Notes: generated by a model not told the origin, from the sequence alone. A stretch of DNA of 64,000 nt from Escherichia coli (GCA_902500055.1 GCA_902500055.1_4131.1); one strand, 5' to 3'. Positions 845 to 22,485 are shown, counted from the stretch's first letter. A program made the numbers and translations.

Positions 845-1633
845 TTAAATGTTAGTAGTATAGTACTTGATTTCGTTTTGAATTGCAAGTTCTATTTGTT
901 TATTGAAAAGAATTCCAAACTCTTTGATTGATTCACAATCGAATTCAATAGAAAAAGTATACTCTGGTACACGTACATTGTCAATACCCAAATACTCTTT
1001 TATGTAAATTTTAATGAGTTCACATAGTGCAGTACTAAGACATTGAATTTCAAAATGTTTTGCACCTTTGTCAAAATACTTGAATGCATCAATATCACCT
1101 ACAATAAAACTATTCTTTAATGTAGTGAATAGGTTCTCAGGAAACACGGTAATAGGTGACATTGATTTAAGAATGTATGTATCTTTGGCATTCTTAATGT
1201 ACTCAATGAAGCAGTAGTTAACGTCAGGCTCGATTGAACGATCCGCGTTATGATACCAGTGTTTAAACTCACTGTATTCAGCAAACTTATGCTGGCGTAA
1301 TGCGTTACAATCTTCACACAGTGCAGTCATGTTCTCTTTATCATTACCGCCCTGAAGACAGTCCAGTACATTATGGTCTAACGTCATGCGTACAAGGCGT
1401 TTCCCTTTAAGTACATAAGGTCTGAATTTATAACGATCTTTAGTACTGTGCTTGTGTAAAGTGAATACTACATTTGATTCACCGCAACAATCACATTTAA
1501 AGCCATCACGTGACATTACATGAATGAGTTTTCGAGTATTTGGACCAAACTCTGATTTGGTAATGTTACCTACAATTTCTGATGGTTGGTAATATTTTGA
1601 ATTCCGTCGAATCAGTTCATCTATAGTGCTCAT
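845..1633 (-). CDS. HNH endonuclease
   Basis: Cys/His pattern CDCCGES...DHNVLDCLQGGNDKENMTALCEDCN typical of HNH nucleases. Confidence 0.7.
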   Translation of the reverse strand: MSTIDELIRRNSKYYQPSEIVGNITKSEFGPNTRKLIHVMSRDGFKCDCCGESNVVFTLHKHSTKDRYKFRPYVLKGKRLVRMTLDHNVLDCLQGGNDKENMTALCEDCNALRQHKFAEYSEFKHWYHNADRSIEPDVNYCFIEYIKNAKDTYILKSMSPITVFPENLFTTLKNSFIVGDIDAFKYFDKGAKHFEIQCLSTALCELIKIYIKEYLGIDNVRVPEYTFSIEFDCESIKEFGILFNKQIELAIQNEIKYYTTNI

Positions 1634-1634
1634 T

Positions 1635-1865
1635 TTACATTAATCCTTCTATGCTACAACCAATAAGTACTTTTTTAACTTCAACAACTCGTACCAAATA
1701 GAATCCATTTGAAAAGTTAAAACTATACATTTGTACTAAGGCATCTGCTTCAGATTTCGCACGGATACATGATAGATAAATTTCACGTATATCACCATCT
1801 AACGATACTTGTTTCTCTGCATCGATGACAATAGAACGAATCTCAAAACGAACACCATAACTCAT
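1635..1865 (-). CDS. hypothetical protein
   Basis: 76 aa ORF abutting neighbours on the same strand. Confidence 0.4.
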   Translation of the reverse strand: MSYGVRFEIRSIVIDAEKQVSLDGDIREIYLSCIRAKSEADALVQMYSFNFSNGFYLVRVVEVKKVLIGCSIEGLM

Positions 1866-2071
1866 TGAGTTTGTCCTACAATAAGCTTTGTGTTAGTATT
1901 ACTATTGTAACACCACATTTGTTCTTTATTAACTGTAATCCAAATATCTTTGTTTACTTGTTCGTATGTACTATCACGTACTGCTATGCATTGATTCATG
2001 GAATTCATTGGGGTTATTTGTATACCGGAATTAACAGAGAAAGCGACTACTAAAAAGATTACTGAATTCAT
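1862..2071 (-). CDS. hypothetical protein
   Basis: 69 aa ORF with hydrophobic N-terminus. Confidence 0.4.
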   Translation of the reverse strand: MNSVIFLVVAFSVNSGIQITPMNSMNQCIAVRDSTYEQVNKDIWITVNKEQMWCYNSNTNTKLIVGQTQ

Positions 2072-2658
2072 TGGATATTCCTTAATGGTTAATCATCCAT
2101 CTCTTCGAGATGTCTGTTCGCTTCTAATACTACGTATTCTACGCGAATGATTAATAACTGTCAAGGACTTTTAATATTGACGGGATTTGAGGAAGGGATT
2201 TTTCTTCCCCCCCCAAGGAGGGAAATTTGACGCTGATGGTATCAGAGCTATTGCATTGAAGATTACTCATAACGAGTGCGAAAGCGGGTCATCCTGTTTC
2301 TCTCTACTTCAGTTTCATATGACGGTCTACACTTTTAAACATAGTGTATCTTCATTAAGTATCTATGCAATCAAATACTTAATGTGAGTACTCAAATTTT
2401 GGACGCAACTTTCCTGTACAAAATTCGATAACTCTCCCTTAGATAATTCGTAAGGTGTTATCCTTATATGTCTATCAAGGAACCACCAGCTATCCTAACG
2501 TGGTTCTTTATACAGCCGCATTGCCGTGAGGGGTTCAAACTATGCCCACATCTAACGGGTTTCTTTTGCTGTTCGCACTGTCGGACTGCTCAACTGCCCT
2601 CTACGTTTTCGAGTGGATCAGGTACATGAATATCATGCCAACAGAATTGTACAAGATA

Positions 2659-2687
2659 ATTATATCACAAACTTTTACTTCATCCCA
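2659..2687 (-). promoter_or_regulatory. extended -10 promoter candidate
   Basis: Minus strand TGTGATATAAT with poor -35; points into the ORF-free island 2072..2650. Confidence 0.35.
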
Positions 2688-2688
2688 T

Positions 2689-2720
2689 AAAAAAAGGTTG
2701 GCATAAGCCAACCTTTTTTC
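2689..2720 (-). terminator. rho-independent terminator (bidirectional hairpin)
   Basis: ggttggc-ataa-gccaacc stem-loop flanked by A-run and T-run, directly after the sigma gene stop. Confidence 0.7.
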
Positions 2721-2721
2721 T

Positions 2722-3687
2722 TTAGAAATCTTCGTATTCGTACCCTTTTGCAAGTACTAACTTCTTAAGCTTTTGCATAGCTTCACTGTACTTTCGGTGT
2801 ATTGATGAACGGGATTTAACATATTTTCCATTATCATCAACAAAACCATTATCAGCAATCTCACGAAGCGTTTCAGGTTCATATTCACCTAGACCATGAA
2901 CACGCTGGATAATCTCACGTTCTTTAGTACTCAATTCGTTAGTCAGTTCATTGATAGCATAACGTAAAGGTGCACGGATACTATCAACATTGAGGTTAAA
3001 ATCAGAAGCAGGTGAATGAATAATGTCACCTAATGTACCATCTGTAACACCGTCTAATGGTGCATCCAGCGAAGTGTATTCGCTTTGAAATAACAAACAA
3101 TTATTAACATGCTGAATCTCAATCCCAGTACCCTCTGAGATTATTTCAGGAGTTGGGCGAACACCATGTTTACGCATATATTCCTGACAGAATCTTTTTA
3201 CTTTGATCTTATGAACACTCATATAACGTGGGAAGTGTACCATATAGTTAGCGTCAGAACTTTCGTTATAGACTGTCATGTAAATACTAGAAGAAGCATA
3301 GGTAATGAACTTAACATTCTTATTAAGATCAAAGGTTTTTAGTGCTCTCATGAACCCCTCAACACCATATGAAATCTTATCTTCAAATGGGATATAACAA
3401 GTACATTTACTTGCTACATCAATAATCAGTCCATAATTGTAACGAACTAACAGTTCAGTGTTTTTCTTTACATTGATACCAGCTTGAATATCACGAATTA
3501 GATCTTCATTGGAAACATTTGGTGGTCGCTTAAGTGTAATATTATATTTGAAACTGCTTTGTACTTTACCTTCATTTTCATCTTTATCTTCAACGAAATC
3601 TAAGGCTTCTAGTGTGTTGACTTCTTCATTAGCAAAACATTCATCCAGAACTTCTTCGGCAATTGTATTTAAATCAAGCTTTTTCAC
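2722..3687 (-). CDS. RNA polymerase sigma factor, sigma-70 family
   Basis: Region 2-like YGLIIDVASKCTCYIPFEDKISYGVEGFMRALKTFD and region 4-like EREIIQRVHGLGEYEPETLREIADNGFVDDNGKYVKSRSSIHRKYSEAMQKL. Confidence 0.8.
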   Translation of the reverse strand: MKKLDLNTIAEEVLDECFANEEVNTLEALDFVEDKDENEGKVQSSFKYNITLKRPPNVSNEDLIRDIQAGINVKKNTELLVRYNYGLIIDVASKCTCYIPFEDKISYGVEGFMRALKTFDLNKNVKFITYASSSIYMTVYNESSDANYMVHFPRYMSVHKIKVKRFCQEYMRKHGVRPTPEIISEGTGIEIQHVNNCLLFQSEYTSLDAPLDGVTDGTLGDIIHSPASDFNLNVDSIRAPLRYAINELTNELSTKEREIIQRVHGLGEYEPETLREIADNGFVDDNGKYVKSRSSIHRKYSEAMQKLKKLVLAKGYEYEDF

Positions 3688-4632: not shown

Positions 4633-4893
4633 TTAGAATTTCTCCGAAATTACAAGTGTATCATCATAATCATCAGCAATATCATGAAGAACTTTTAAGT
4701 TACTTTCACCAGAAACGCTTTTTACTTCGTTCAAAAGATAGTTTAGATCAACTTTAGTTACTTTTTCTGAATCAAACACACAGAAAGTTAATTCAGCGTT
4801 TGGACAGATCTTCTTCAGATTATCAGCAACCACTTGTTTGAAGTTGAAAGATGGGGAAGCAACTAGGTTAACTGCAACGAGAATAGATTTCAT
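4633..4893 (-). CDS. hypothetical protein
   Basis: 86 aa ORF. Confidence 0.5.
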   Translation of the reverse strand: MKSILVAVNLVASPSFNFKQVVADNLKKICPNAELTFCVFDSEKVTKVDLNYLLNEVKSVSGESNLKVLHDIADDYDDTLVISEKF

Positions 4894-4967
4894 AATGTTT
4901 TCCTTTCTAGCTGATAATTAAATTAGGAGCACATTGTACTCCATATTATTTGTTATGTCAAATACTT

Positions 4968-5219
4968 TTAGATACCAAGTGCAGTAGATAACTCTTTACG
5001 TTTGTTATATGAATCAGATTCAATCTTACTTTTCTTGTTGAAAAGGGATTCGATATCCTTATAGATTGCTTCGATAGATTTAGTTACTACCCATTCTGAT
5101 TCTTGAAGCATACCTTGGAGTCGTGCGTACTCAACTTTGATAGTACTGCGAAGTTCTTCACAAACTTCTTCATTCTTAATTAGTGCAGCACTAAGTTCTT
5201 TGACCTTATCGATGTTCAT
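4968..5219 (-). CDS. hypothetical protein
   Basis: 83 aa ORF, helical/charged composition. Confidence 0.45.
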   Translation of the reverse strand: MNIDKVKELSAALIKNEEVCEELRSTIKVEYARLQGMLQESEWVVTKSIEAIYKDIESLFNKKSKIESDSYNKRKELSTALGI

Positions 5220-5278
5220 AAGTTCCTTACTCTAATTTGTTTTTAACAAAATAATTATATATAACATACTAAATTATG

Positions 5279-5704
5279 TCAAGTATTTTTAGTACCTTCT
5301 TCTGCCATTTTTGTGATATACCAATTAAGTACTGATTTGTGTACCATAAAAAATGTGAATGCAAATATAGCAATAGCTGCTGATGTAACACTATTAGATA
5401 ATGACCCAAGTTGGATGTTAGTACCTAAAATAACAATAAATGGATACAACACAATCAATCTACTGTAAGGTTCGTCTCCAGTATCACGGAGAAATCCAAG
5501 CCTTTCATGATCAGTATCCATAGTGACAATTGGACAGAACATAAGTGCAGACATAAGAGCAATACCAATTTGTGCTACATTGGAAATTGTAAACCACAAA
5601 GGATTTAAACCATATGAAATATTATTTTCTGTACAGTAGTAACCAAACGAATTGAATGCACAAACTAAAAATACAAAAATACAAATCTTATTATAACCTC
5701 TCAT
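5279..5704 (-). CDS. hypothetical membrane protein
   Basis: Several hydrophobic segments. Confidence 0.5.
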   Translation of the reverse strand: MRGYNKICIFVFLVCAFNSFGYYCTENNISYGLNPLWFTISNVAQIGIALMSALMFCPIVTMDTDHERLGFLRDTGDEPYSRLIVLYPFIVILGTNIQLGSLSNSVTSAAIAIFAFTFFMVHKSVLNWYITKMAEEGTKNT

Positions 5705-7787: not shown

Positions 7788-8368
7788 AATGGTAACTCCT
7801 GTAGTGGTTTCATAATACCGAGTACTGGGTGATTTTCAATCATTGGTCGCCCTGGTACACCAGTGAGGATAACTGGGATAGAACTAATATCTTTTACATA
7901 GTTGAATCCCTCAAACGTGAACTCTTGTTTTTTCTCATTATACAATACCCATAGTATTACGTCAGCTTTTTTCTGGATATTTTTTAACTGTCGAGTACTA
8001 ACACATGGTCCAAAGTCAGTCCATGATTTATACTTGATACCTTTTACTTCAATACGAAGGTTGTTTACCTTAATATCACATTCACCGTCACGTGCTTCAT
8101 TTTGGAATGCTGGATCGATATTAAGTTTAATACCAGTATTGTTTTCAATTTCATTAAAAAGTACTAAAGATGCGTGCTCACACACCATACCAACAAAATG
8201 ACTATGTGCATGATTAAAACCATATGGCGATTTACTTGCTGGAGCCAAAAGTTTATATCTTTCTGATTTTTCAATCGCTTTTGCCATAAAGGAATCAGCT
8301 TCATCTTTATATAACTTAACAGTCATTTTTCCATTTTTCAGTACTAATCTATTATCAATAACATTCAT
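7784..8368 (-). CDS. hypothetical protein, possible PD-(D/E)xK nuclease
   Basis: Segment GECDIKVNNLRIEVKG resembles the D...E-x-K catalytic motif; weak. Confidence 0.45.
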   Translation of the reverse strand: MNVIDNRLVLKNGKMTVKLYKDEADSFMAKAIEKSERYKLLAPASKSPYGFNHAHSHFVGMVCEHASLVLFNEIENNTGIKLNIDPAFQNEARDGECDIKVNNLRIEVKGIKYKSWTDFGPCVSTRQLKNIQKKADVILWVLYNEKKQEFTFEGFNYVKDISSIPVILTGVPGRPMIENHPVLGIMKPLQELPL

Positions 8369-8433
8369 AAAAACACCTCATTATTCATTCACTACATGAT
8401 AACACCAAATCATACACCAGTCAAGCTCATTTT

Positions 8434-8460
8434 TTGGATATGCATAATAAATACGTTATA
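8434..8460 (+). promoter_or_regulatory. promoter candidate for plus-strand gene
   Basis: ttggat-N-TATAAT upstream of strong SD ggaggg and ATG at 8485. Confidence 0.35.
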
Positions 8461-8484
8461 ATAATTATACCAATGGAGGGATAA

Positions 8485-9639
8485 ATGTCAAGGTCAATTG
8501 CTGCGGCTGGACGCTATAAGTTTGGTGAATGTGGTTATGTTGTTGATGGTGCAATCCTCAATGATGGAACTAGACTAAAAAATATTAGAATCTATCGCCA
8601 AAGAAGCCATAGATTATATGATTTAGTTGATCCAAGAACTAATATAATATATCGTAAAGTACAAATAACAACTAAAGATAATAAAGGTTATCTATTAAAT
8701 TACAATAAAACTAATGACCAACTATTAAGTGAAATTAATAAAAATTGTTTCTTTGTTCGTGGATATTCTGAAGAGCCACAAGAAACTGATACTGGATTTG
8801 TATATAAATTTATGCTACATAAAACAATTTTAGGTAGTTCACAAACCTTGTATCATATGTATACACCTGAATGTGGTATTATAGATCGTGATATAGATAA
8901 TATTCTCATTTCACCAGTATTTGTTGGTAATGACTCAATTAGTGGTAAATTATTCAACACTGGTTCAGAAATTGATACTAACGGTATGGTAATAACAATC
9001 GTATTACCAGACGGGACAGAATACTTTACTACCCAATTTGTTAATGATGCATTTACAATTCCAGTTGATGTTATCACACAATCAGGGAAAGGTACTGCTA
9101 CACTCACTTCTCCATATTATAACACTAAAGTGGTGGAATTTGATGTTCTTGAAAGTGGTGAGGATATTGATTTTGTTACATCAGTTCTTCTATCCCAATT
9201 TGAACCTGTTTCGGAAGGTGTATTTTCTGCGGTTGTTCCATTTGATGTTCATGATCGTGGACAGTACTTAGCACTTCAAGCATACAGTGGTGACTTATAT
9301 CAAGTTGGTGTAGATCTTTCTGTAGACGCAGAAGGTAATATTACTGTGTATCAAACTGACAATTTACCTGTTTCTTTGAGTATAATCGGAAAAACACTGC
9401 ATACTACTCCTTTCCATAAAGAATATACTTTAAGTGAGTGGGTTCTCGGTGAAGACTCTATGTACTCTATCTCAGTTCCAGTAACTGAACATGGTAAAGC
9501 ACTACCACAAGTTCAATTATATTCTTCAGACAATCATGTAGTTCATAGTGAAATACAAGTGGATGAAGATGATAATGTAATTCTTAAAGTAGTAGAACCG
9601 CTTGACTGCTCAGTCGTAATAGTTGGTTACAACGCATAA
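8485..9639 (+). CDS. hypothetical protein
   Basis: 384 aa plus-strand ORF with good SD, ends at a convergent terminator. Confidence 0.6.
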   Translation: MSRSIAAAGRYKFGECGYVVDGAILNDGTRLKNIRIYRQRSHRLYDLVDPRTNIIYRKVQITTKDNKGYLLNYNKTNDQLLSEINKNCFFVRGYSEEPQETDTGFVYKFMLHKTILGSSQTLYHMYTPECGIIDRDIDNILISPVFVGNDSISGKLFNTGSEIDTNGMVITIVLPDGTEYFTTQFVNDAFTIPVDVITQSGKGTATLTSPYYNTKVVEFDVLESGEDIDFVTSVLLSQFEPVSEGVFSAVVPFDVHDRGQYLALQAYSGDLYQVGVDLSVDAEGNITVYQTDNLPVSLSIIGKTLHTTPFHKEYTLSEWVLGEDSMYSISVPVTEHGKALPQVQLYSSDNHVVHSEIQVDEDDNVILKVVEPLDCSVVIVGYNA

Positions 9640-13039: not shown

Positions 13040-13457
13040 CCTTACTCATATTACTACGGATCACCCCACTAAGAAAACATATTTTCCTTAATGTATCATA
13101 ACTGATATTTGTAAGATCATGTACAAAATTCAACTGCAAGTACATTTCTTCAGTTAATTGATTAAATGTATCATCAACATGAATGTTAGTATGTTCCGTT
13201 ATATCTATTTCTATATTATTTTCCCAAATATCAATGCTAACAGCATAGTCTGATGTATGTCTGGATTGAACTGAAATAAAAATATTATTACTGTTGTATA
13301 ATGTCTCTGTGTATCCATTCAAAAATGATCCAACGACAACATCAAAAATGCCATCTCTAATTGGGTTTTTTGTTTCAAACGTATCACTACAAACTTGACG
13401 GTATACAATGTCAACATACTTATCAATTAAAGTAAACAAATAACTCATTGCATTCAC
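13029..13457 (-). CDS. EExFQxST-motif paralog family protein
   Basis: C-proximal TEEMYLQLNFVHDLTNISYDTL. Confidence 0.55.
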   Translation of the reverse strand: MNAMSYLFTLIDKYVDIVYRQVCSDTFETKNPIRDGIFDVVVGSFLNGYTETLYNSNNIFISVQSRHTSDYAVSIDIWENNIEIDITEHTNIHVDDTFNQLTEEMYLQLNFVHDLTNISYDTLRKICFLSGVIRSNMSKDGK

Positions 13458-13463
13458 CTATAT

Positions 13464-13496
13464 AAGAAAAAAGGCCGATTCATCGAATCAGCCTTA
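13464..13496 (-). terminator. rho-independent terminator
   Basis: Minus strand aaggctgattc-gatg-aatcggcctt followed by TTTTT. Confidence 0.6.
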
Positions 13497-13682
13497 AGTA
13501 TAACACAGTAGAAGTTAAAAAGTCAACTTCTAAATTACAGCATCCAAGAGGAATAAAAAGATACTGTTAGAGGGTAACGAATATAATGAATTTGAGGGTA
13601 ATATCATTATACGTAAAAAAGTGATAGCTTCTATACATAAGGAGGAATCAGTACTGACTAGAAGCTATCGGGTTAAACGATT

Positions 13683-13967
13683 TCAGTACTGAGTGTTTAG
13701 TTTAGGATGAGTATTTCCATCTTCGATTTGTTTTAGAATCGAGTCACGAATTTCTACTGCCCCTTGATAACTATATTTATCTTTTGGGATCACCCATGTA
13801 TATTCGCCATCAGTGGTTTTAAAATCAATACATGGATTATCCCTGTATTCAGATGCAATGATTGCAATAACATGTAATGAATTCAATGAATGATTTGTAT
13901 AAGGATAATTGTTATTATCTCTGAACGTGAATGTTTTAAGTTCATCAGGTGCAACAATGAATTCCAT
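13683..13967 (-). CDS. hypothetical protein
   Basis: 94 aa ORF. Confidence 0.5.
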   Translation of the reverse strand: MEFIVAPDELKTFTFRDNNNYPYTNHSLNSLHVIAIIASEYRDNPCIDFKTTDGEYTWVIPKDKYSYQGAVEIRDSILKQIEDGNTHPKLNTQY

Positions 13968-14158
13968 TATTCATCCTCGTACTTCTTGAATGGTGGAACA
14001 TCTACCTTGAAGTCTTTGCACATCTTAGTTGTACGAACTTCAGTATTGTTGTGATAATTTTTCTTAAATTCATAAGAAACATAATTACGAATACCAGGTG
14101 TATGAATAATAGCAAGAACCAATGTACGACCAAACAAGCATAATAAATTCCAGAACAT
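13967..14158 (-). CDS. hypothetical small membrane protein
   Basis: 63 aa, hydrophobic N-terminus. Confidence 0.4.
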   Translation of the reverse strand: MFWNLLCLFGRTLVLAIIHTPGIRNYVSYEFKKNYHNNTEVRTTKMCKDFKVDVPPFKKYEDE

Positions 14159-14167
14159 ATGAATCTC

Positions 14168-14533
14168 CTAATTGTGGGTTTTAACCAAACGTGAGACAGC
14201 TAGTATAGCATTAACCTCATCCAATGTCAACCCACCAATGTCATTAATCATTGAGTACTGAAATAGTGATTCTTCAGTGTAATGGTAATCATGAGAAGCA
14301 ATAAAGATTGCTGGTTTAGATGCATCCAAAATTATCTTTGTCATTGTACTATATATATCAAATTGATATAATAGATTTTCACCTGTATATGCTACGTAGA
14401 TATTATTTGAATAGGCTGGATGTACCATTGTAAAACCATCATAACATAATATTTTTATGTTCGGATCGTCAAAATTGCCTGTATAAAGGTTATTACAAAC
14501 ATCTTGCATTATACGTACTATTAGACTAGTCAT
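14168..14533 (-). CDS. EExFQxST-motif paralog family protein
   Basis: C-proximal TEESLFQYSMINDIGGLTLDEV. Confidence 0.55.
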   Translation of the reverse strand: MTSLIVRIMQDVCNNLYTGNFDDPNIKILCYDGFTMVHPAYSNNIYVAYTGENLLYQFDIYSTMTKIILDASKPAIFIASHDYHYTEESLFQYSMINDIGGLTLDEVNAILAVSRLVKTHN

Positions 14534-14954
14534 TTAACGGATTTAATACCTCTTCTGGAATCAATCTTTGAACTTTAAGGATAGCACTAATGTCATCAAA
14601 TGTTAATCCTAATGTGTTGTTAACGAGGCAGTACTGGAAGAATTTTTCTTCAGTGTTTATATCATCTACATTAAATTCAATGTTTTCATCAATATAATAA
14701 TCTTCATTAAAATTATCATATTCAGAAATTCTAAATGTAACAGTGTTCAAATACATATCAATTGAATAAAACTGCTTATTAAGTTCATAAGCCATAAAAA
14801 TATTAAAACATTTACTCAAATCAGTGATTTCATTCAATTCTGGATCATAGCAAAAAACACGCACTTCACCAACGTCTTCTACTTGTACATCGTGTAGTGA
14901 CCATGTTTTATTTTGTAATACATAATCAACAAATTTTACAATGTTCATTTTCAT
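14526..14954 (-). CDS. EExFQxST-motif paralog family protein
   Basis: C-proximal TEEKFFQYCLVNNTLGLTFDDI. Confidence 0.55.
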   Translation of the reverse strand: MKMNIVKFVDYVLQNKTWSLHDVQVEDVGEVRVFCYDPELNEITDLSKCFNIFMAYELNKQFYSIDMYLNTVTFRISEYDNFNEDYYIDENIEFNVDDINTEEKFFQYCLVNNTLGLTFDDISAILKVQRLIPEEVLNPLND

Positions 14955-14970
14955 TGTGTACCTTAAAAAT

Positions 14971-15672
14971 TTATTTACGATTCCTTGCGGAGTTTTTATT
15001 TCTTGCTCTAAATGTCGGTGTCATTGAATGACAATTCGGACAAAGAATTTTTAAATTCGATAGGTCATTATTTGTTGCATCACCATCAATATGTTCAACT
15101 TCGGTAAGGACTGCACCATCAACTGGATGACGTTCATCCCATCCACAATCTTCACATGCAGTTCCACGTGTTTCATGTAGGTATCTTCTCACATAATTAC
15201 TAATTTTGCAAGTCTTACCAGTACAACCCAGTTTATCACCAGCAAGCCAAGACTTAACATAAGTGTCATATTGGTGCTGTTTATGGCATTTCGAATCACA
15301 ATATTTCTTATCTGTTTTTCCTTTAGGTATAAATGTATTACATGATAAACAGTACTGATCCTTCACCATCTCACCTGTATGTCGGTTATAACCTTTATTA
15401 TTATAACTAGCAGCACAAGATTGATTGCAAAATTTCTTTACTTCAACCCCTTTACAAAAAGGTATTGAGTTATGACACATCAAACACAACGTTGGATTTT
15501 CATTATAATATCTTTCACGAAATTCTTTATTAAGATTCGACAATGTAAATCCATACTTTAATAGTATTGTATTATAAGAAGGTAGTTCTTTACATTCATT
15601 GATATCTTTTTTGGTTATATTTGATTTTTTATTTTTGTATAGATTGTACATAATCTCTTTCATAACATCCAT
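14971..15672 (-). CDS. HNH endonuclease with Cys-rich zinc-finger region
   Basis: CEDCGW...EVEHIDGDATNNDLSNLKILCPNCH HNH motif plus several CxxC pairs. Confidence 0.75.
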   Translation of the reverse strand: MDVMKEIMYNLYKNKKSNITKKDINECKELPSYNTILLKYGFTLSNLNKEFRERYYNENPTLCLMCHNSIPFCKGVEVKKFCNQSCAASYNNKGYNRHTGEMVKDQYCLSCNTFIPKGKTDKKYCDSKCHKQHQYDTYVKSWLAGDKLGCTGKTCKISNYVRRYLHETRGTACEDCGWDERHPVDGAVLTEVEHIDGDATNNDLSNLKILCPNCHSMTPTFRARNKNSARNRK

Positions 15673-15729
15673 ATCCTATATAAGTAATATATAGTATTTA
15701 GTGCTATGAAATAGATTCGAACTTATTTG

Positions 15730-15803
15730 TGCCCCAATTCCGACTCGAACGGAAAAATCTCACGATTACAAATCGTGTGCATTACCAATTTTGCTATTGA
15801 GGC
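15730..15803 (-). tRNA. tRNA-Thr (anticodon TGT)
   Basis: Hand-folded cloverleaf: acceptor GCCTCAA/TTGGGGC, anticodon stem CACGA/TCGTG with loop TTTGTAA, T-arm TTCCG-TTCGAGT-CGGAA. Confidence 0.65.
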
Positions 15804-15977
15804 TAATTTAGGAAGTAAGATAACCAACAAGTCTCCATACTCTTTCGCATTGAGGGGAGGTCATCTTACTGTATTATTTATCATTTTTATTTTTGCTTAT
15901 TTCGACGCATTAACTTGATTAAAGCAAGTGTAGGCATAGGTTGTGCTGAACAAAGTACTTCAAGCTGTTTGGCAGTC

Positions 15978-16064
<87 letters not shown>

Positions 16065-16066
16065 TA

Positions 16067-16192
<126 letters not shown>

Positions 16193-16211
16193 GCATACTC
16201 GAAGTACCTCT

Positions 16212-16317
<106 letters not shown>

Positions 16318-16361
16318 AATTGCTTTATAAGCTACTGAATCGGGAATCACAACCTCCCCAT

Positions 16362-16616
<255 letters not shown>

Positions 16617-16625
16617 TAATACCCG

Positions 16626-17027
16626 CTAGTAGTTTAAGTCTGCGGCGTTGAATACACCAAGTGAAGTCTTACCACGTAGTTTAGGTGAAAGGACATACTT
16701 TGTCAATTTCTTTTTACCGTACCAGTGATTGAATTCGTCTTCAGTAACATGTGGGTTCTGGAAATCGTATTCACGTTTCTTATGAAGTTTTTTAGCTTGT
16801 TCTGCAATCTTAGTTCGTTGATCTTCTGGAATGTCGAATGTATTGTTACGTTTGCACCATTCGTGCACTAATGCTTCCAGAAGGAACTGTTCAGTTTCTT
16901 TGACTAGAGTGATTTTAGTCAAGCCTTTTTCGATGTTCATATAATCATCGACATATCCATTCCAAATAACAATCTCTGGATTGCCGTCAATCTCTTGAAG
17001 CATTTTGATCAAGTCATTCTTTTTCAT
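16626..17027 (-). CDS. hypothetical protein
   Basis: 133 aa; N-terminus MKKNDLIKMLQ paralogous to 16398..16613. Confidence 0.5.
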   Translation of the reverse strand: MKKNDLIKMLQEIDGNPEIVIWNGYVDDYMNIEKGLTKITLVKETEQFLLEALVHEWCKRNNTFDIPEDQRTKIAEQAKKLHKKREYDFQNPHVTEDEFNHWYGKKKLTKYVLSPKLRGKTSLGVFNAADLNY

Positions 17028-17035
17028 TTAAATTC

Positions 17036-17347
<312 letters not shown>

Positions 17348-17397
17348 TTAATTAACAGTTAATCGCACCACCTATTGTGCTACAGAGTCATAATTAT

Positions 17398-18102
17398 TTA
17401 TAAGCCATGTCTTTTCAAAAATCTAGCAAACACATTTTTGGAAGCACCATAACTTTCATATATACTAACTTTTTTCTCACCATTATTCAAACGTTGTTTG
17501 ATATCTTCTATGTTATCTTCTAAACGTTTTACGTTTGCAAATTTCTTAGATGGTATATTATTTTTGGTTCTATAATTCAGTACTGAACCTGAACTAATAT
17601 TCATTATTTTAGCAATTTCAGTATCTAATAAACCTTGGTTAATATATTCTTTTACCTTTTCATAATCAACAGATGTTTCACCACCCTTTGTATTAGAAGG
17701 AGGCTTGACCATTTTTTGTGAACACTCAACACTACAATATTTTGTATATGATTTCACTTTAGTATGCCTACGGGTAAATTCCATATTACAACAAGCACAT
17801 ACAAATGAATCATATCGTGCTTGCACACCATTCTTATGTGTTTTATAACGATGTTCATCAACATGAAGTATTTGCAAATTTGACAAATCATCATTTGTGA
17901 AATCATTATCAATGTGGTCTGCTTCTTCAGACTCAGTTAAATATCTACCTTCTTGTACTGCTAATAGATATCTGGCATATTGAGTACTGCTTCTATCAGT
18001 TGGAGAATTATAAAGTATTACAGTTCTTCTACCTTCAGGGTTTATCTGTATATACCCATTCTCCCAATCATTACTGTATGGATATTCTAATTTTATTTTC
18101 AT
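17398..18102 (-). CDS. HNH homing endonuclease
   Basis: EEADHIDNDFTNDDLSNLQILHVDEH HNH core with basic HTH-like C-terminus. Confidence 0.7.
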   Translation of the reverse strand: MKIKLEYPYSNDWENGYIQINPEGRRTVILYNSPTDRSSTQYARYLLAVQEGRYLTESEEADHIDNDFTNDDLSNLQILHVDEHRYKTHKNGVQARYDSFVCACCNMEFTRRHTKVKSYTKYCSVECSQKMVKPPSNTKGGETSVDYEKVKEYINQGLLDTEIAKIMNISSGSVLNYRTKNNIPSKKFANVKRLEDNIEDIKQRLNNGEKKVSIYESYGASKNVFARFLKRHGL

Positions 18103-18433
18103 TATTTTATTTCAAAGTTTGTGAGCCATCTGTGAGTCGAACACAGTACCTAACGATTCGTATAATCTATAGTTTTCACTATAGTACGGACTATATCATC
18201 ATCCCATAGGGATGCCGGACGCTAATGATGTATTACACAGTAAGATCGTACTGTACCATCTAGTCTCTGCACCTTCCCAATACGCTTATTGGGCTTGGCT
18301 CAGGATTGTCATCACCATTACGTGTTAAGATTTCCCTGAATTCATCCAGTTTTTCAATCACCATTACTGATGAAAGTCACCATTGTCGATGAGTCGTTTG
18401 CTCTAACCACCGTGAGCTAATGGCCCGATTTAG

Positions 18434-18686
<253 letters not shown>

Positions 18687-18695
18687 TACTGAAAA

Positions 18696-19085
<390 letters not shown>

Positions 19086-19163
19086 ATCACCAACTTTAAT
19101 TAAAAAAAATGGATGGTGACGCTTTTAAACGTCGCTGTCAATTCAGCTTTATAACCACCCGTT

Positions 19164-19373
19164 TTAACTTACCTTTCGGCTACCTTGACGTGGGGCGTAC
19201 AGGCTACTAAAAGCAACTTCTGTAAACATATTTCCACGCCTTACCCTTTTAAATAAAAGTCCATCCGGTTTTCCAGTTTGATGAAGGACTGTCACCTCTA
19301 GTTTAAACCTGCTAGTCAAGTAATAATTGCCTATCGTCCAATTATCAAACCCGTCTAGGTTAACATTCACCAC
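19164..19373 (-). CDS. hypothetical protein
   Basis: 69 aa ORF in a GC-richer, possibly non-coding stretch. Confidence 0.3.
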   Translation of the reverse strand: MVNVNLDGFDNWTIGNYYLTSRFKLEVTVLHQTGKPDGLLFKRVRRGNMFTEVAFSSLYAPRQGSRKVS

Positions 19374-19455
19374 TTCCTAGAGTACCAGAGATCTTGTTCT
19401 GGATTGCATCGACGTAACTTACACCATATACGTCTGATTGTGGAATTCATTTTAT

Positions 19456-19486
<31 letters not shown>

Positions 19487-19525
19487 ACAAATCTGGACGT
19501 TCATCTTTAAACATATTAATATCCT

Positions 19526-19543
19526 CAGTACTGAATTATTTAG

Positions 19544-19548
<5 letters not shown>
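19526..19548 (-). repeat. promoter-like repeat copy 2
   Basis: cagtactgaattatttagtcaag; minus strand TTGACT -35. Confidence 0.5.
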
Positions 19549-19956
<408 letters not shown>

Positions 19957-19968
19957 GCTTTTTTTTAA

Positions 19969-20129
<161 letters not shown>

Positions 20130-20133
<4 letters not shown>

Positions 20134-20294
20134 ATTCGTACCATTAGTTCAATTAAGTACTTTTTATATTCTGGGTCGTTGATAAGTTTATCATACAGAT
20201 GCAACTTTGAAATGAATTCCCAATGATACTTTAGCCATTTACCAATACCTGCATATCTAAAATTAATATCATTCATCCATTCTTCATGCGTCAT
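20130..20294 (-). CDS. MTHEEW small protein, subfamily A
   Basis: 54 aa MTHEEWMNDINFRYAGIGKWLKYHWEF...MVRI; stop overlaps next start in ATGA. Confidence 0.5.
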
Positions 20295-20455
20295 ATTCGT
20301 ACCATTATTTCAATAAAGAACCACGGATACACTTCATGATTTATAAGTTTATCGTATTCTGCTGGGTCTGATATAATCTCCCAATGATATTTTCGCCAAT
20401 TACCTATGCCGGAGTATCTGAACTTTAGTTCACTTAACCATTCTTCATGGGTCAT
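20291..20455 (-). CDS. MTHEEW small protein, subfamily A
   Basis: 54 aa MTHEEWLSELKFRYSGIGNWRKYHWEI...MVRI; ATGA overlap with next gene. Confidence 0.5.
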   Translation of the reverse strand: MTHEEWLSELKFRYSGIGNWRKYHWEIISDPAEYDKLINHEVYPWFFIEIMVRI

Positions 20456-20489
20456 GGTTTTCCCTTTTAATTAATGGAATATAATTGTA

Positions 20490-21032
<543 letters not shown>

Positions 21033-21046
21033 AATATTATATTTTA

Positions 21047-21118
21047 TAAAGGGCCGGAGAATCGAACTCCGATTGGATTCTTAGAAGGAATCTGTTTTAT
21101 CCGTTAAACTAGCCCCTC
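21047..21118 (-). tRNA. tRNA-Arg (anticodon TCT)
   Basis: Hand-folded: D-stem GTTT/AAAC, anticodon stem GATTC/GAATC with loop CTTCTAA, T-arm CGGAG-TTCGATT-CTCCG; acceptor needs two G-U pairs. Confidence 0.55.
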
Positions 21119-21128
21119 AGTACTAATA

Positions 21129-21157
21129 ATTATATCACATCTTTTTGTGCTGTCCCA
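21129..21157 (-). promoter_or_regulatory. extended -10 promoter candidate upstream of tRNA-Arg
   Basis: Minus strand TGTGATATAAT about 10 nt upstream of the tRNA 5' end. Confidence 0.35.
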
Positions 21158-21161
21158 TTAT

Positions 21162-21458
21162 TTATGATTCGGTTTGGGGATTAAATTTGATAAATTCATC
21201 TTTATGTTCATCTTCGATTGCAATATCTTCTACATCTTCAGGCCAGATTGTGGTGTCATCTTGGAAGAAGCGATAATTATCGAATTCTGCACTACGTGTT
21301 CTTCCCTGTTTCCAACCAATAGTGCAGTCATGATATACATCACCACTACGTGTACGAATACTAATTGAGTCTTGTGTTTCATAAAGAACATCAATGCGTG
21401 TGTCACGACTTGTGTTGAATTTTTCAAAATGCATAATATTATCCTCATTTAGAACCAA
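21162..21458 (-). CDS. hypothetical protein
   Basis: 98 aa ORF. Confidence 0.5.
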   Translation of the reverse strand: MVLNEDNIMHFEKFNTSRDTRIDVLYETQDSISIRTRSGDVYHDCTIGWKQGRTRSAEFDNYRFFQDDTTIWPEDVEDIAIEDEHKDEFIKFNPQTES

Positions 21459-21528
21459 TGATAATCATTATATAATGAATTAATCATTTATGCAAGTGCT
21501 TTAGATACACTAACGCAATTTTCTATAT

Positions 21529-21708
21529 TCATTGTTTGATTGTTTTTCTAAATGCCAGTTCGCATATAAACCAGGGTTTTCTGGTATCCAAAACATATGA
21601 CCTGAAAAGATTTTCATCTCTTAAGATGTCATAGTGTACCTGACGAATACCATTCCCAAAGAAATCATGTTCTTTATGTTGTTTGGACATCCATTCTTTG
21701 TGTGTCAT
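21529..21708 (-). CDS. MTHEEW small protein, subfamily B
   Basis: 59 aa MTHKEWMSKQHKEHDFFGNGIRQVHYDILRDENLFRSYVLDTRKPWFICELAFRKTIKQ; below ORF-track cut-off. Confidence 0.5.
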   Translation of the reverse strand: MTHKEWMSKQHKEHDFFGNGIRQVHYDILRDENLFRSYVLDTRKPWFICELAFRKTIKQ

Positions 21709-21709
21709 T

Positions 21710-22045
<336 letters not shown>

Positions 22046-22050
22046 TCTTA

Positions 22051-22245
22051 CTATTTTTTATCTCTAATAGCAAGCTCGTAGATGAACCAGTGGTTGGAAT
22101 CTTCGTCCAAAACCAATGATTCGAACGTTTTTTTATCGTTCAAAATATCATAATGGCCTTGGCGTATACCAAATCCAAAATGATCATGTTTATATTTTAG
22201 TGACTCTATCCATTCTTCATGTGTCATTTTATGTATCCAGTTCAA
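22051..22245 (-). CDS. MTHEEW small protein, subfamily B
   Basis: Contains MTHEEWIESLKYKHDHFGFGIRQGHYDILNDKKTFESLVLDE...WFIYELAIRDKK; likely starts at the internal MTHEEW Met. Confidence 0.5.
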   Translation of the reverse strand: MNWIHKMTHEEWIESLKYKHDHFGFGIRQGHYDILNDKKTFESLVLDEDSNHWFIYELAIRDKK

Positions 22246-22305
22246 TTAAGTGTTTCATTTATTCTTCTGTAAAGAAAGCATTGCAATGGACAATGGAAAA
22301 GGTTA

Positions 22306-22485
22306 TTATATTTTTTTGTCTCTAACCGCAAGCTCATAGATGAACCAACGATTTCCATTCTCATCTAGTACATATGATTCGAACTTATATTTGTCTCGTA
22401 AAATATCGAAATGACCATCAATAAATCCATTTCCAAACTGGTCATAACGTTTTTTCATCATTGCCATCCATTCTTCATGTGTCAT
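22306..22485 (-). CDS. MTHEEW small protein, subfamily B
   Basis: 59 aa MTHEEWMAMMKKRYDQFGNGFIDGHFDILRDKYKFESYVLDENGNRWFIYELAVRDKKI. Confidence 0.5.
   Translation of the reverse strand: MTHEEWMAMMKKRYDQFGNGFIDGHFDILRDKYKFESYVLDENGNRWFIYELAVRDKKI

Follow-up and report, generated by a model that had tools for sequence, protein, structure and literature searches.

What fills the apparently empty gap at positions 2072–2690 of a 64,000-nucleotide (nt) stretch of DNA recorded under Escherichia coli (GCA_902500055.1), hereafter the window? From the sequence alone, this gap had been described as a G+C-rich region free of open reading frames (ORFs), lying downstream of a promoter and perhaps encoding a structured RNA. 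We are close to certain that it holds a transcribed, structured RNA gene on the minus strand. The gene is complete, and its RNA belongs to a previously undescribed noncoding family of ∼500 bases, with no match in Rfam or in the searchable literature. As to its function we favor, at a probability of roughly 40%, the reading that the unit is a cis-acting handle for replication and mobilization of DNA by the phage's T4-like machinery.

Positions 1800–2900 of the window share 99.7% identity with Escherichia phage phAPEC6 and 99.5% with 121Q. Both belong to Asteriusvirus, Rak2-like jumbo myoviruses of ∼350 kb, and the window DNA is that of an Asteriusvirus. The gene strand around the gap is minus. 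The claimed lack of ORFs was borne out: between the flanking ORFs (2722..3687 and 1862..2071) there are only short ones, of 39–66 amino acids (aa). Some annotators have called hypothetical proteins there, which leaves the reading that the region encodes one or more missed small proteins; we give it hardly any credence. Among 47 homologous copies, the median length of the longest ORF is 57 aa, with no common frame; tblastn matches between copies fall in differing frames and strands, as for conserved noncoding DNA; and indels between the conserved blocks are of any length. With no ORF conserved in frame among homologs, a protein-coding gene was rejected. The elevated G+C content was also confirmed, at 39.4% in 2072–2690 and 41.4% in 2175–2657, against a window mean of 32.9% (standard deviation 2.7%). 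The value of 2175–2657 is reached by no other 483-base segment of the 64 kb.

Comparative evidence for a folded RNA

Copies were collected by pattern scans of public collections together with nhmmer, which recovered 57 full-length copies in phage genomes and viral contigs, and ∼70 more hits, full-length and partial, from metagenomes and genome assemblies. An initial 14-base pattern returned mostly chance hits in the viral collection, and longer patterns were used. The window copy scored E = 8.7e-112 across model positions 8–508. Alignment A1 comprises 41 representatives at <95% identity, with a mean pairwise identity of 68%. The conserved RNA core lies at 2175..2657 on the minus strand (2657→2175); it is 483 nt long here and 482–572 nt elsewhere, and is multi-domain, with three pseudoknots supported by covariation.

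A model of 15 helices and 76 pairs was built from RNAalifold and an exhaustive search for stacked covarying column pairs. In A1, on which the model was both chosen and scored so that the numbers are somewhat inflated, 96.5% of cells are paired, compared with 36–45% when partners are slid by 1–3 columns; the covariation score is 0.513, compared with 0.06–0.11 for slid partners; and 58 of the 76 pairs show changes on both sides. None of 500 shuffles reached any of the pairing or covariation measures. Six island copies (described below) that had been kept outside model building retain 60–70 of the 76 pairs, with 7–17 changed on both sides. Invariant blocks alternate with halves that change together, such as GGAACCAC..GUGGUUCC, GAAGUAC..GUACUUC and GCAUGAC..GUUCAUGC. 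Among model pairs in A1, G-U combinations far outnumber A-C (241 vs 16), and the folded strand is therefore the window minus strand. Single-sequence stability is ordinary (minimum free energy −122 kcal/mol, z = −1.24 against shuffles); the evidence for structure is comparative rather than thermodynamic. That comparative support is unusually clean, the three pseudoknots included.

The preliminary description had let its RNA proposal depend on structural conservation in homologous regions, and this is abundant. Its reading of the gap as a phage noncoding RNA (ncRNA) holds, given the inward promoter, the strand set by G-U pairs, and covariation for 15 helices over 41 copies. One hairpin that it offered as an example, cctta-gataattcg-taagg, is indeed present as sequence (∼2437–2457), but covariation pairs its CCUU with an upstream AAGG, and the CCUUA/UAAGG hairpin was left out of the model on that ground. 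Also dropped was a helix that would have closed the RNA by joining its 5′ end to the 3′ CGUCAG, since a hairpin loop (pseudoknot 1, below) is the better-supported partner of the 5′ strand.

Promoter and anatomy of the RNA

The promoter said to point into the region was found where expected. It occupies 2659..2687 on the minus strand, with a −35-like TGGGAT (2687→2682), a 17-base spacer and a perfect extended −10 (TGTGATATAAT, 2669→2659; TG-n-TATAAT) that here reads TGaTATAAT (2667→2659). Its position predicts a transcription start near 2652. Of the diverged copies in A1, 39 of 41 have TGnTATAAT and two have TGnTATACT, at equal upstream distance in the minus sense, and across the 41 the −10 is preceded by TGAAAC, TGGAAC or TGGGAT. 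Island copies share the promoter layout of phage copies. The promoter of the RNA copies is of the type that was described in CBB as ‘divergent RpoD-like’, which has TGAAACG plus TATA and stands mostly before DNA-synthesis genes (PMC5259590).

Nearest the 5′ end is pseudoknot 1, formed between a 5′ strand CUGNNUGRY and a hairpin loop further downstream. Here the strand is CUGUUGGC (2637..2644, minus), its partner is the loop of a GCA..UGC hairpin ∼70 nt downstream (A1 columns 28–35 with 111–118), and seven of the eight pairs of this helix (helix 1), which RNAalifold finds too, have changed on both sides. A near-invariant core, part single-stranded and part helical, follows at 2515..2563 (minus), running from GAAACCCGUUAG (2563→2552) through CACGGCAAUGCGGC (2528→2515) in invariant A1 columns. 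Pseudoknot 2 joins the loop of a 13-bp hairpin to a strand ∼150 nt further on; its helix has 7 bp as found, of which six were scored and five have both-side changes. The region of pseudoknot 3 (2284..2328, minus; helices 11 and 13) pairs GACCGUCAU (2328→2319) with AUGAC in the loop of a GAGAG/CUUUC hairpin (2292→2284). This pairing is GUUGC/GCAAC in most copies and a compensatory GUCAU/AUGAC in the window copy. Invariant unpaired blocks include GAAACCCGUUAG, CACGGCAAUGCGGC, CUAAGGGAG and AACCCGC.

Toward the 3′ end stands a G-run hairpin (2198..2225, minus; helix 15), with G8 at 2214→2207 here and G6 elsewhere, facing a C/U partner strand. The G run is invariant and its partner changes only between C and U, preserving G-U in the minus sense. 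The last core block, CCCGUCAAU (2176..2184, minus), contains CGUCAG or CGUCAA (CGUCAR) in all copies. Conservation extends past the core into a GURUUAAAC-like word and then two hairpins, which were read by eye and are unscored. Tail hairpin I (2117..2147, minus) has a UUCGC/GCGAA stem and a loop with ACGUAGU; elsewhere, in phage and island copies alike, unrelated stems carry the loop consensus RAACGWAGYGAR. Tail hairpin II (2097..2114, minus) reads GAC-AUCUC-GAAG-AGAU-GG, and takes the form UUGAC-stem-loop-stem-GGCAA elsewhere, with at least five complementary kinds of stem (CAUUC/GAAUG, CUAAC/GUUAG, CUUGC/GCAAG, CUCGC/GCGAG and CAAUC/GAUUG). With the tail hairpins conserved to ∼2097, the whole gap 2072–2690 is one unit. 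The ends of the element are marked by inverted CUGA...UCAG-like words.

Termination varies among copies. In about half of them, E. coli-phage copies B and C for example, an inserted intrinsic terminator of good quality separates CAUCGUCAG from the G-run hairpin; it is constructed in two or more ways. One copy group has instead a hairpin and U run straight after the start. No terminator was found within 160 nt past the core in any copy. The region 3′ of the inserted terminators is conserved as strongly as the rest of the RNA.

A hairpin module, AAAUUUUGUACAAUAUAGAUCCGUCCAAAAUUU, occupies either of two alternative positions depending on the paralog (A1 columns 361–404 and 541–569; about 2380–2412 in the window). 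Some island copies have it at both positions, copy B at neither, and it behaves like a transplantable peripheral element. A sigma-70-type promoter, TTGACA-17-TAGAAT with 11/12 consensus bases (2136..2164, minus; 2164→2136), overlaps tail hairpin I and probably serves the operon of the 69-aa ORF downstream. Its counterparts in other copies lie at different positions within the tail.

Diverged copies in jumbo phages

Sensitive BLAST of 2072–2690 against phage records matched 257 places in 62 records. There were four places per genome in Asteriusvirus and three to five in other genera, among them Mimasvirus (CBB, GAP32), Eneladusvirus (Serratia BF, Yersinia fHe-Yen9, Erwinia pEa_SNUABM), Salmonella 7t3/Munch-like phages and Xanthomonas phages; five copies were found in Mimasvirus and Eneladusvirus relatives. 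Cross-genus identity of copies is only ∼70%. The 64-kb window includes a single copy. OR844650, a complete relative that was scanned whole, has copies at 18.2, 128.4, 208.2 and 261.5 kb, in one orientation. Copies are co-oriented with local genes. Over a whole genome, cumulative GC skew tracks the orientation of genes on the strand map, with no distinctive signal at any of the four copies.

Clustering gave roughly five groups over Mimasvirus and Eneladusvirus-like genomes, mostly with one member per genome; the exception is one group to which two genomes each contribute two copies. The Asteriusvirus copies cluster separately. Identity is ∼60–65% between copies of one genome and at least about 75% inside a cross-genus cluster. 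Copy D of the E. coli phages is syntenic with a CBB copy: each is followed by a hypothetical gene and then a Dam methylase gene. From the within-genome divergence, the cross-genus clusters and this synteny, we interpret the copies as old, separately kept paralogs, not as a recent repeat.

This bears on the reading of the element as a DNA-level repeat with no RNA role, whether a miniature mobile element, a recombination hotspot, a cluster of protein sites or a decayed intron. It is dispersed and repeated, with all four copies of the genome scanned whole in the same orientation; it has the inverted end words; and the UE-S1 annotation labels part of it a repeat_region. The compensatory changes and the asymmetry of G-U over A-C, by contrast, indicate selection on one transcribed strand rather than on the duplex. 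The copies are old and not recently mobile, no intron model matches them, and no host gene is split. The pair statistics largely refute the DNA-level reading, and we consider it very improbable.

Copy B is followed by ∼430 nt of noncoding DNA and then a convergent gene. In this copy (127.9–128.4 kb of the ECO103 genome) and in CBB, BF and others of its group, a conserved bidirectional terminator, AAAAAAACCAGC-N5-6-GCTGGTT, lies 60–90 nt past the tail hairpins and is shared with the convergent gene.

Copies in chromosomal islands

Our scan of genome collections also located full-length copies that preserve the fold in bacterial chromosomes, within small integrase-bearing islands of Enterobacterales. 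In Serratia fonticola GTA-SR07 the RNA lies after genes for a large serine recombinase and two ParB_N/RepB proteins, beside a duplicated rof gene and tilS. The two rof (Rho inhibitor) genes that adjoin this island, at 4775–5038 and 5227–5490 of locus L234, are near-identical, and their duplication was probably made by island integration. A second island type was found in Buttiauxella, Enterobacter chinensis, an Enterobacteriaceae strain and several metagenome contigs. Its order is integrase (tyrosine in some, large serine in others), RNA, convergent cI-like repressor (helix-turn-helix plus S24 peptidase), divergent Ner-like regulator and cargo. One RNA-bearing island has a complete Kiwa defense system, KwaA/KwaB, at 13083–14625 of locus L259.

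The third backbone is a ∼10.5-kb island beside ffs in E. coli LR-29-1, whose copy scores E = 1e-112, comparable to that of the window. Its integrase is disrupted by IS3 and its cargo comprises DuOB, DUF488 and DUF4326/mSLOG. About 400 nt past the RNA of this island (14960–15040 of locus L367) there is an AT-rich segment of repeated TTATCGATCGTT-like words, which may serve the island as iterons or regulator sites. The RNA was present in only 2 of 5426 complete E. coli genomes, and PLSDB plasmids gave no match to it.

The promoter type, the fold and the tail hairpins are all retained in the copies on islands. Identity between the E. coli island copy and one copy in Serratia phage BF is 85%, which suggests recent exchange; the remaining island copies are closest (70–82%) to a copy on a T4-like phage fragment. 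Insertion sites include rof-tilS, ffs, and positions beside dapE-, thiM/D- and rlmI-like genes. The three backbones, with integrase and cI/Ner, with serine recombinase and two ParB-like proteins, and adjacent to ffs in E. coli, are unrelated. Comparison of 129 island ORFs with 0.9 Mb of Rak2-like phage DNA left the DUF4326 cargo protein as the sole real match, and apart from it no candidate for a protein partner of the RNA was common to islands and phages. With the protein comparison near-empty, the RNA unit is, in the comparisons run, the only non-cargo element common to the three backbones and the jumbo phages. Among the island ORFs scanned against Pfam, none showed a recognizable replication or packaging domain, and no morphogenesis genes were recognized in the island parts examined. 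The islands thus resemble phage satellites in having an integrase and regulatory switch, defense cargo, and no recognized virion genes (Pfam, PADLOC).

Orientation in the islands also speaks to a further reading, that the RNA is a cis-regulatory leader, working either by polymerase-modifying antitermination in the manner of HK022 put or as a giant attenuator of an embedded terminator. The element sits directly after a strong promoter and runs in the same direction as local genes; many copies have an internal terminator, or a terminator-like hairpin right after the start; and with no terminator within 160 nt of the element end, transcription of most copies probably continues into the genes downstream. 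Like the element, put is a phage RNA directly after a promoter and present in more than one copy, and it acts on downstream terminators. But put is ∼70 nt long as against ∼500 nt here, and the element is five to seven times the size of known antitermination RNAs. In several copies, that of the window included, the next gene has a separate sigma-70-type promoter before it. A put-like element always stands before co-directional genes, whereas copy B leads into its ∼430 nt of noncoding DNA and a convergent gene, and island copies point at the 3′ end of the convergent repressor gene. Since copy B and the island copies face convergent genes, we regard the RNA as independently promoted and a leader as improbable, if less so than a DNA-level repeat.

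Candidate roles: an origin or mobilization signal, or a trans-acting RNA

The same unit is carried by a 350-kb virulent phage, in several dispersed copies, and by a gene-poor island, in one, and should be of use to both. A cis-acting origin or mobilization signal is the simplest account of this. It is favored by the sharing of the unit among three backbones that lack recognizable replication or packaging genes in the parts examined, and Kiwa cargo adds a likeness to known satellites; the promoter, too, is of the kind that CBB has mostly before DNA-synthesis genes. Replication of the T4 type begins at several promoters, where the transcripts form R-loops. Kreuzer and Alberts reportedly found that T4 has several transcript-primed origins and that origin plasmids are replicated and packaged by T4. 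In ColE1, a folded transcript of ∼0.5 kb with a G-rich segment can control hybrid formation.

Features of both systems recur here. As in ColE1, there is a promoter-driven, structured transcript of ∼0.5 kb, as predicted from the promoter and the 483-nt covarying core. As with T4 oriF and oriG, there are several units per genome (four to five), each with a dedicated promoter. ColE1 RNA II is likewise promoter-driven and ∼0.5 kb long, with a G-rich segment, a 3′ part whose hybrid primes DNA synthesis, and hairpin signals following on the displaced strand; of the hybrid-forming features, the new RNA shows an invariant G run with its C/U partner. The two RNAs share no homology, however, the new one is far more conserved and pseudoknotted, and the likeness in priming is an analogy. 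The Rfam model RNAI gave no match, plus-strand promoters in the 5′ part not having been specifically examined. The T4 parallel lies in a T4-like replisome with several origins, each defined by a promoter whose transcript primes the leading strand, and would explain single-copy carriage by gene-poor islands, but T4 origin transcripts are short and without a conserved fold, unlike the new RNA.

On the origin reading, the transcript would be an origin RNA or pre-primer, like ColE1 RNA II or the T4 R-loop origins oriF and oriG. Formation of a persistent RNA-DNA hybrid around the invariant G run would depend on its fold, perhaps in concert with a phage protein or RNase H, and the tail hairpins on the displaced strand might aid lagging-strand or helicase loading. 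Several dispersed origins would serve the 350-kb genome. Islands with one copy would be amplified and packaged as minimal satellites upon infection by a Rak2-like phage. The full scenario, in which the RNA defines the origins of Rak2-like phages and an unrecognized class of minimal satellites has captured the RNA gene, to be copied and packaged by the helper, strikes us as possible yet doubtful.

Several points weigh against the origin reading. No initiator, iterons or obvious unwinding element was identified. To our knowledge, transcript-primed origins need neither three pseudoknots nor long invariant single strands, and such conservation is more typical of ribozymes or ribonucleoprotein (RNP) RNAs. 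About half of the copies have a good terminator just ahead of the G run, and most of their transcripts would be cut before the hybrid site. None of the viral-collection hits examined was an island, and most island boundaries were not reached. The literature searched held no transcriptome of an enterobacterial Rak2-like phage, and the pairing statistics come from the alignment that shaped the model.

Some of these points lead directly to the other serious candidate, a structured RNA that acts in trans, as a ribozyme, an RNP subunit, a self-assembling RNA or a host-factor sponge. Its four or five genes would supply it early and in large amounts, and an island copy would serve the island itself or be a decoy that titrates the phage partner, as a form of defense. 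The 15 helices, three pseudoknots and many invariant unpaired blocks are typical of catalytic and RNP RNAs. The hairpin module (here UACAAUAUAGAUCCGUCCAAAA) is grafted at two alternative positions across paralogs, as are the peripheral elements of ribozymes. Terminators set the 3′ end in about half of the copies, every copy is independent, with its own promoter, copy B has no downstream gene, and defense cargo is present on islands. Abundant large ncRNAs of unassigned role are also described for phages PA5oct and ICP1 (PMC7318152, PMC7567579). A trans-acting RNA leaves unexplained, on the other hand, the strong conservation 3′ of the terminators (the G-run hairpin, CGUCAG and the two tail hairpins), the upkeep of four or five diverged paralogs, and the placement of the RNA in the conserved backbone, not in the variable cargo, of three unrelated island types. 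Nor is a partner-protein gene linked to it in phages or islands. In view of the terminators and the RNP-like conservation, we judge a trans-acting RNA nearly as likely as an origin.

Large, intricately folded RNAs of bacteria and phages are rare, and new classes (RNase P, group I and II introns, OLE, GOLLD, ROOL) have opened new biology. With four to five old paralogs in each genome, the present RNA offers a natural series, and its sharing by phages and islands gives an experimental handle on how replication starts in jumbo T4-like phages and on whether jumbo phages have satellites. Rak2-like phages are under development for therapy, and annotators leave these loci blank or add spurious hypothetical proteins.

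Relation to known RNA families and satellites

Scanning with Infernal against Rfam 15 (4227 models), one of the checks proposed for the candidate RNA, yielded no catalogued family, with core matches considered to E ≤ 1 and none at gathering score. The sole trace in 2175–2657 was an 18-nt match of the G run to whalefall-1 (E = 0.65). Two CBB copies and two island copies likewise matched nothing in Rfam at E ≤ 0.1. We take this outcome to mean that the family is not yet catalogued, and nothing more. The literature searched held no description of the loci and no jumbo-phage satellite.

The suggestion of a degraded intron-like element did not survive: there is no match to RF00028 or RF00029, and the element lies between genes under a promoter of its own, and is found at four unrelated loci with no split host gene. 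As a control, the same scan finds a group I intron in the window (RF00028, 99 bits, 18167–18481). This intron appears to split a tRNA (anticodon CAU; 18122–18426, minus) in the anticodon loop, between flanks GGGCCATTAGCTCACGGTGGTTAGAGCAAACGACTCAT ... AATCGTTAGGTACTGTGTTCGACTCACAGATGGCTCA; the tRNA was not called by ARAGORN.

The nearest known kind is GOLLD and ROOL, which are also several hundred nt long and phage-borne, with covarying helices and pseudoknots. The models for GOLLD, ROOL, OLE, HEARO and raiA gave no match to the RNA family. GOLLD and ROOL often stand beside tRNA genes, whereas the nearest tRNA to the element is at 15.7 kb, and they occur once per genome, unlike the four to five diverged paralogs here, which are also found in integrative chromosomal islands. 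GOLLD and ROOL are known to self-assemble (PMC12286853). A tRNA cluster (Thr, Asn, Ser, Arg, Gly) occupies 15729–22023 of the window (minus), ∼13 kb from the element.

Among lytic phages, PA5oct has four long noncoding RNAs defined by RNA-seq, lncRNA001–004, two of which account for roughly 1–5% of phage reads each (PMC7318152). For ICP1, an abundant ncRNA of ∼800 nt is described (PMC7567579). Like the element, these come from ORF-free regions of hundreds of bases in large lytic phages, and theirs are actively transcribed; PA5oct is a distant relative of the Rak2-like phages. In the PA5oct genome (MK797984) the four loci are 8263–8498, 21951–22401, 103065–103668 and 246116–246734. Homology of the element to these four was tested with nhmmer at maximum sensitivity and rejected.

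P4-like elements, PICI, PLE and PICMI resemble the RNA-bearing islands in having an integrase, a cI/Cro-like switch and defense cargo. We know of no satellite linked to a jumbo phage, nor of one that has a large structured RNA in common with its helper. If the satellite part of the scenario were true, these islands would be the first known satellites of jumbo phages, with little beyond integrase, switch, defense cargo and RNA.

Neighboring features

An HNH endonuclease had been named as a neighbor of the gap. The 262-aa ORF at 845–1633 (minus) does show an HNH-like pattern, LDHN...N...CEDCN, but has no Pfam hit at E ≤ 0.01. Because the element recurs at four unrelated loci, this neighbor is not its common partner. 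The 69-aa ORF at 1862..2071 (minus) is the first downstream, has no Pfam family, and is context outside the element.

Upstream, the ORF at 2722..3687 (minus) belongs to the sigma-70 family, with Pfam domains Sigma70_r2/r3/r4. The terminator that had been placed between this sigma gene and the region was verified: the hairpin GGTTGGC-ATAA-GCCAACC lies at 2696–2713 with A7 and T6 flanks. It is absent from the consensus scan listing and was read directly from the sequence. It forms an intrinsic, bidirectional-looking terminator that ends the sigma gene (2689..2719, minus; stem 2696–2702/2707–2713; U7 tract in the minus sense), and weak Rfam matches to terminator-type small RNAs align at 2689..2719.

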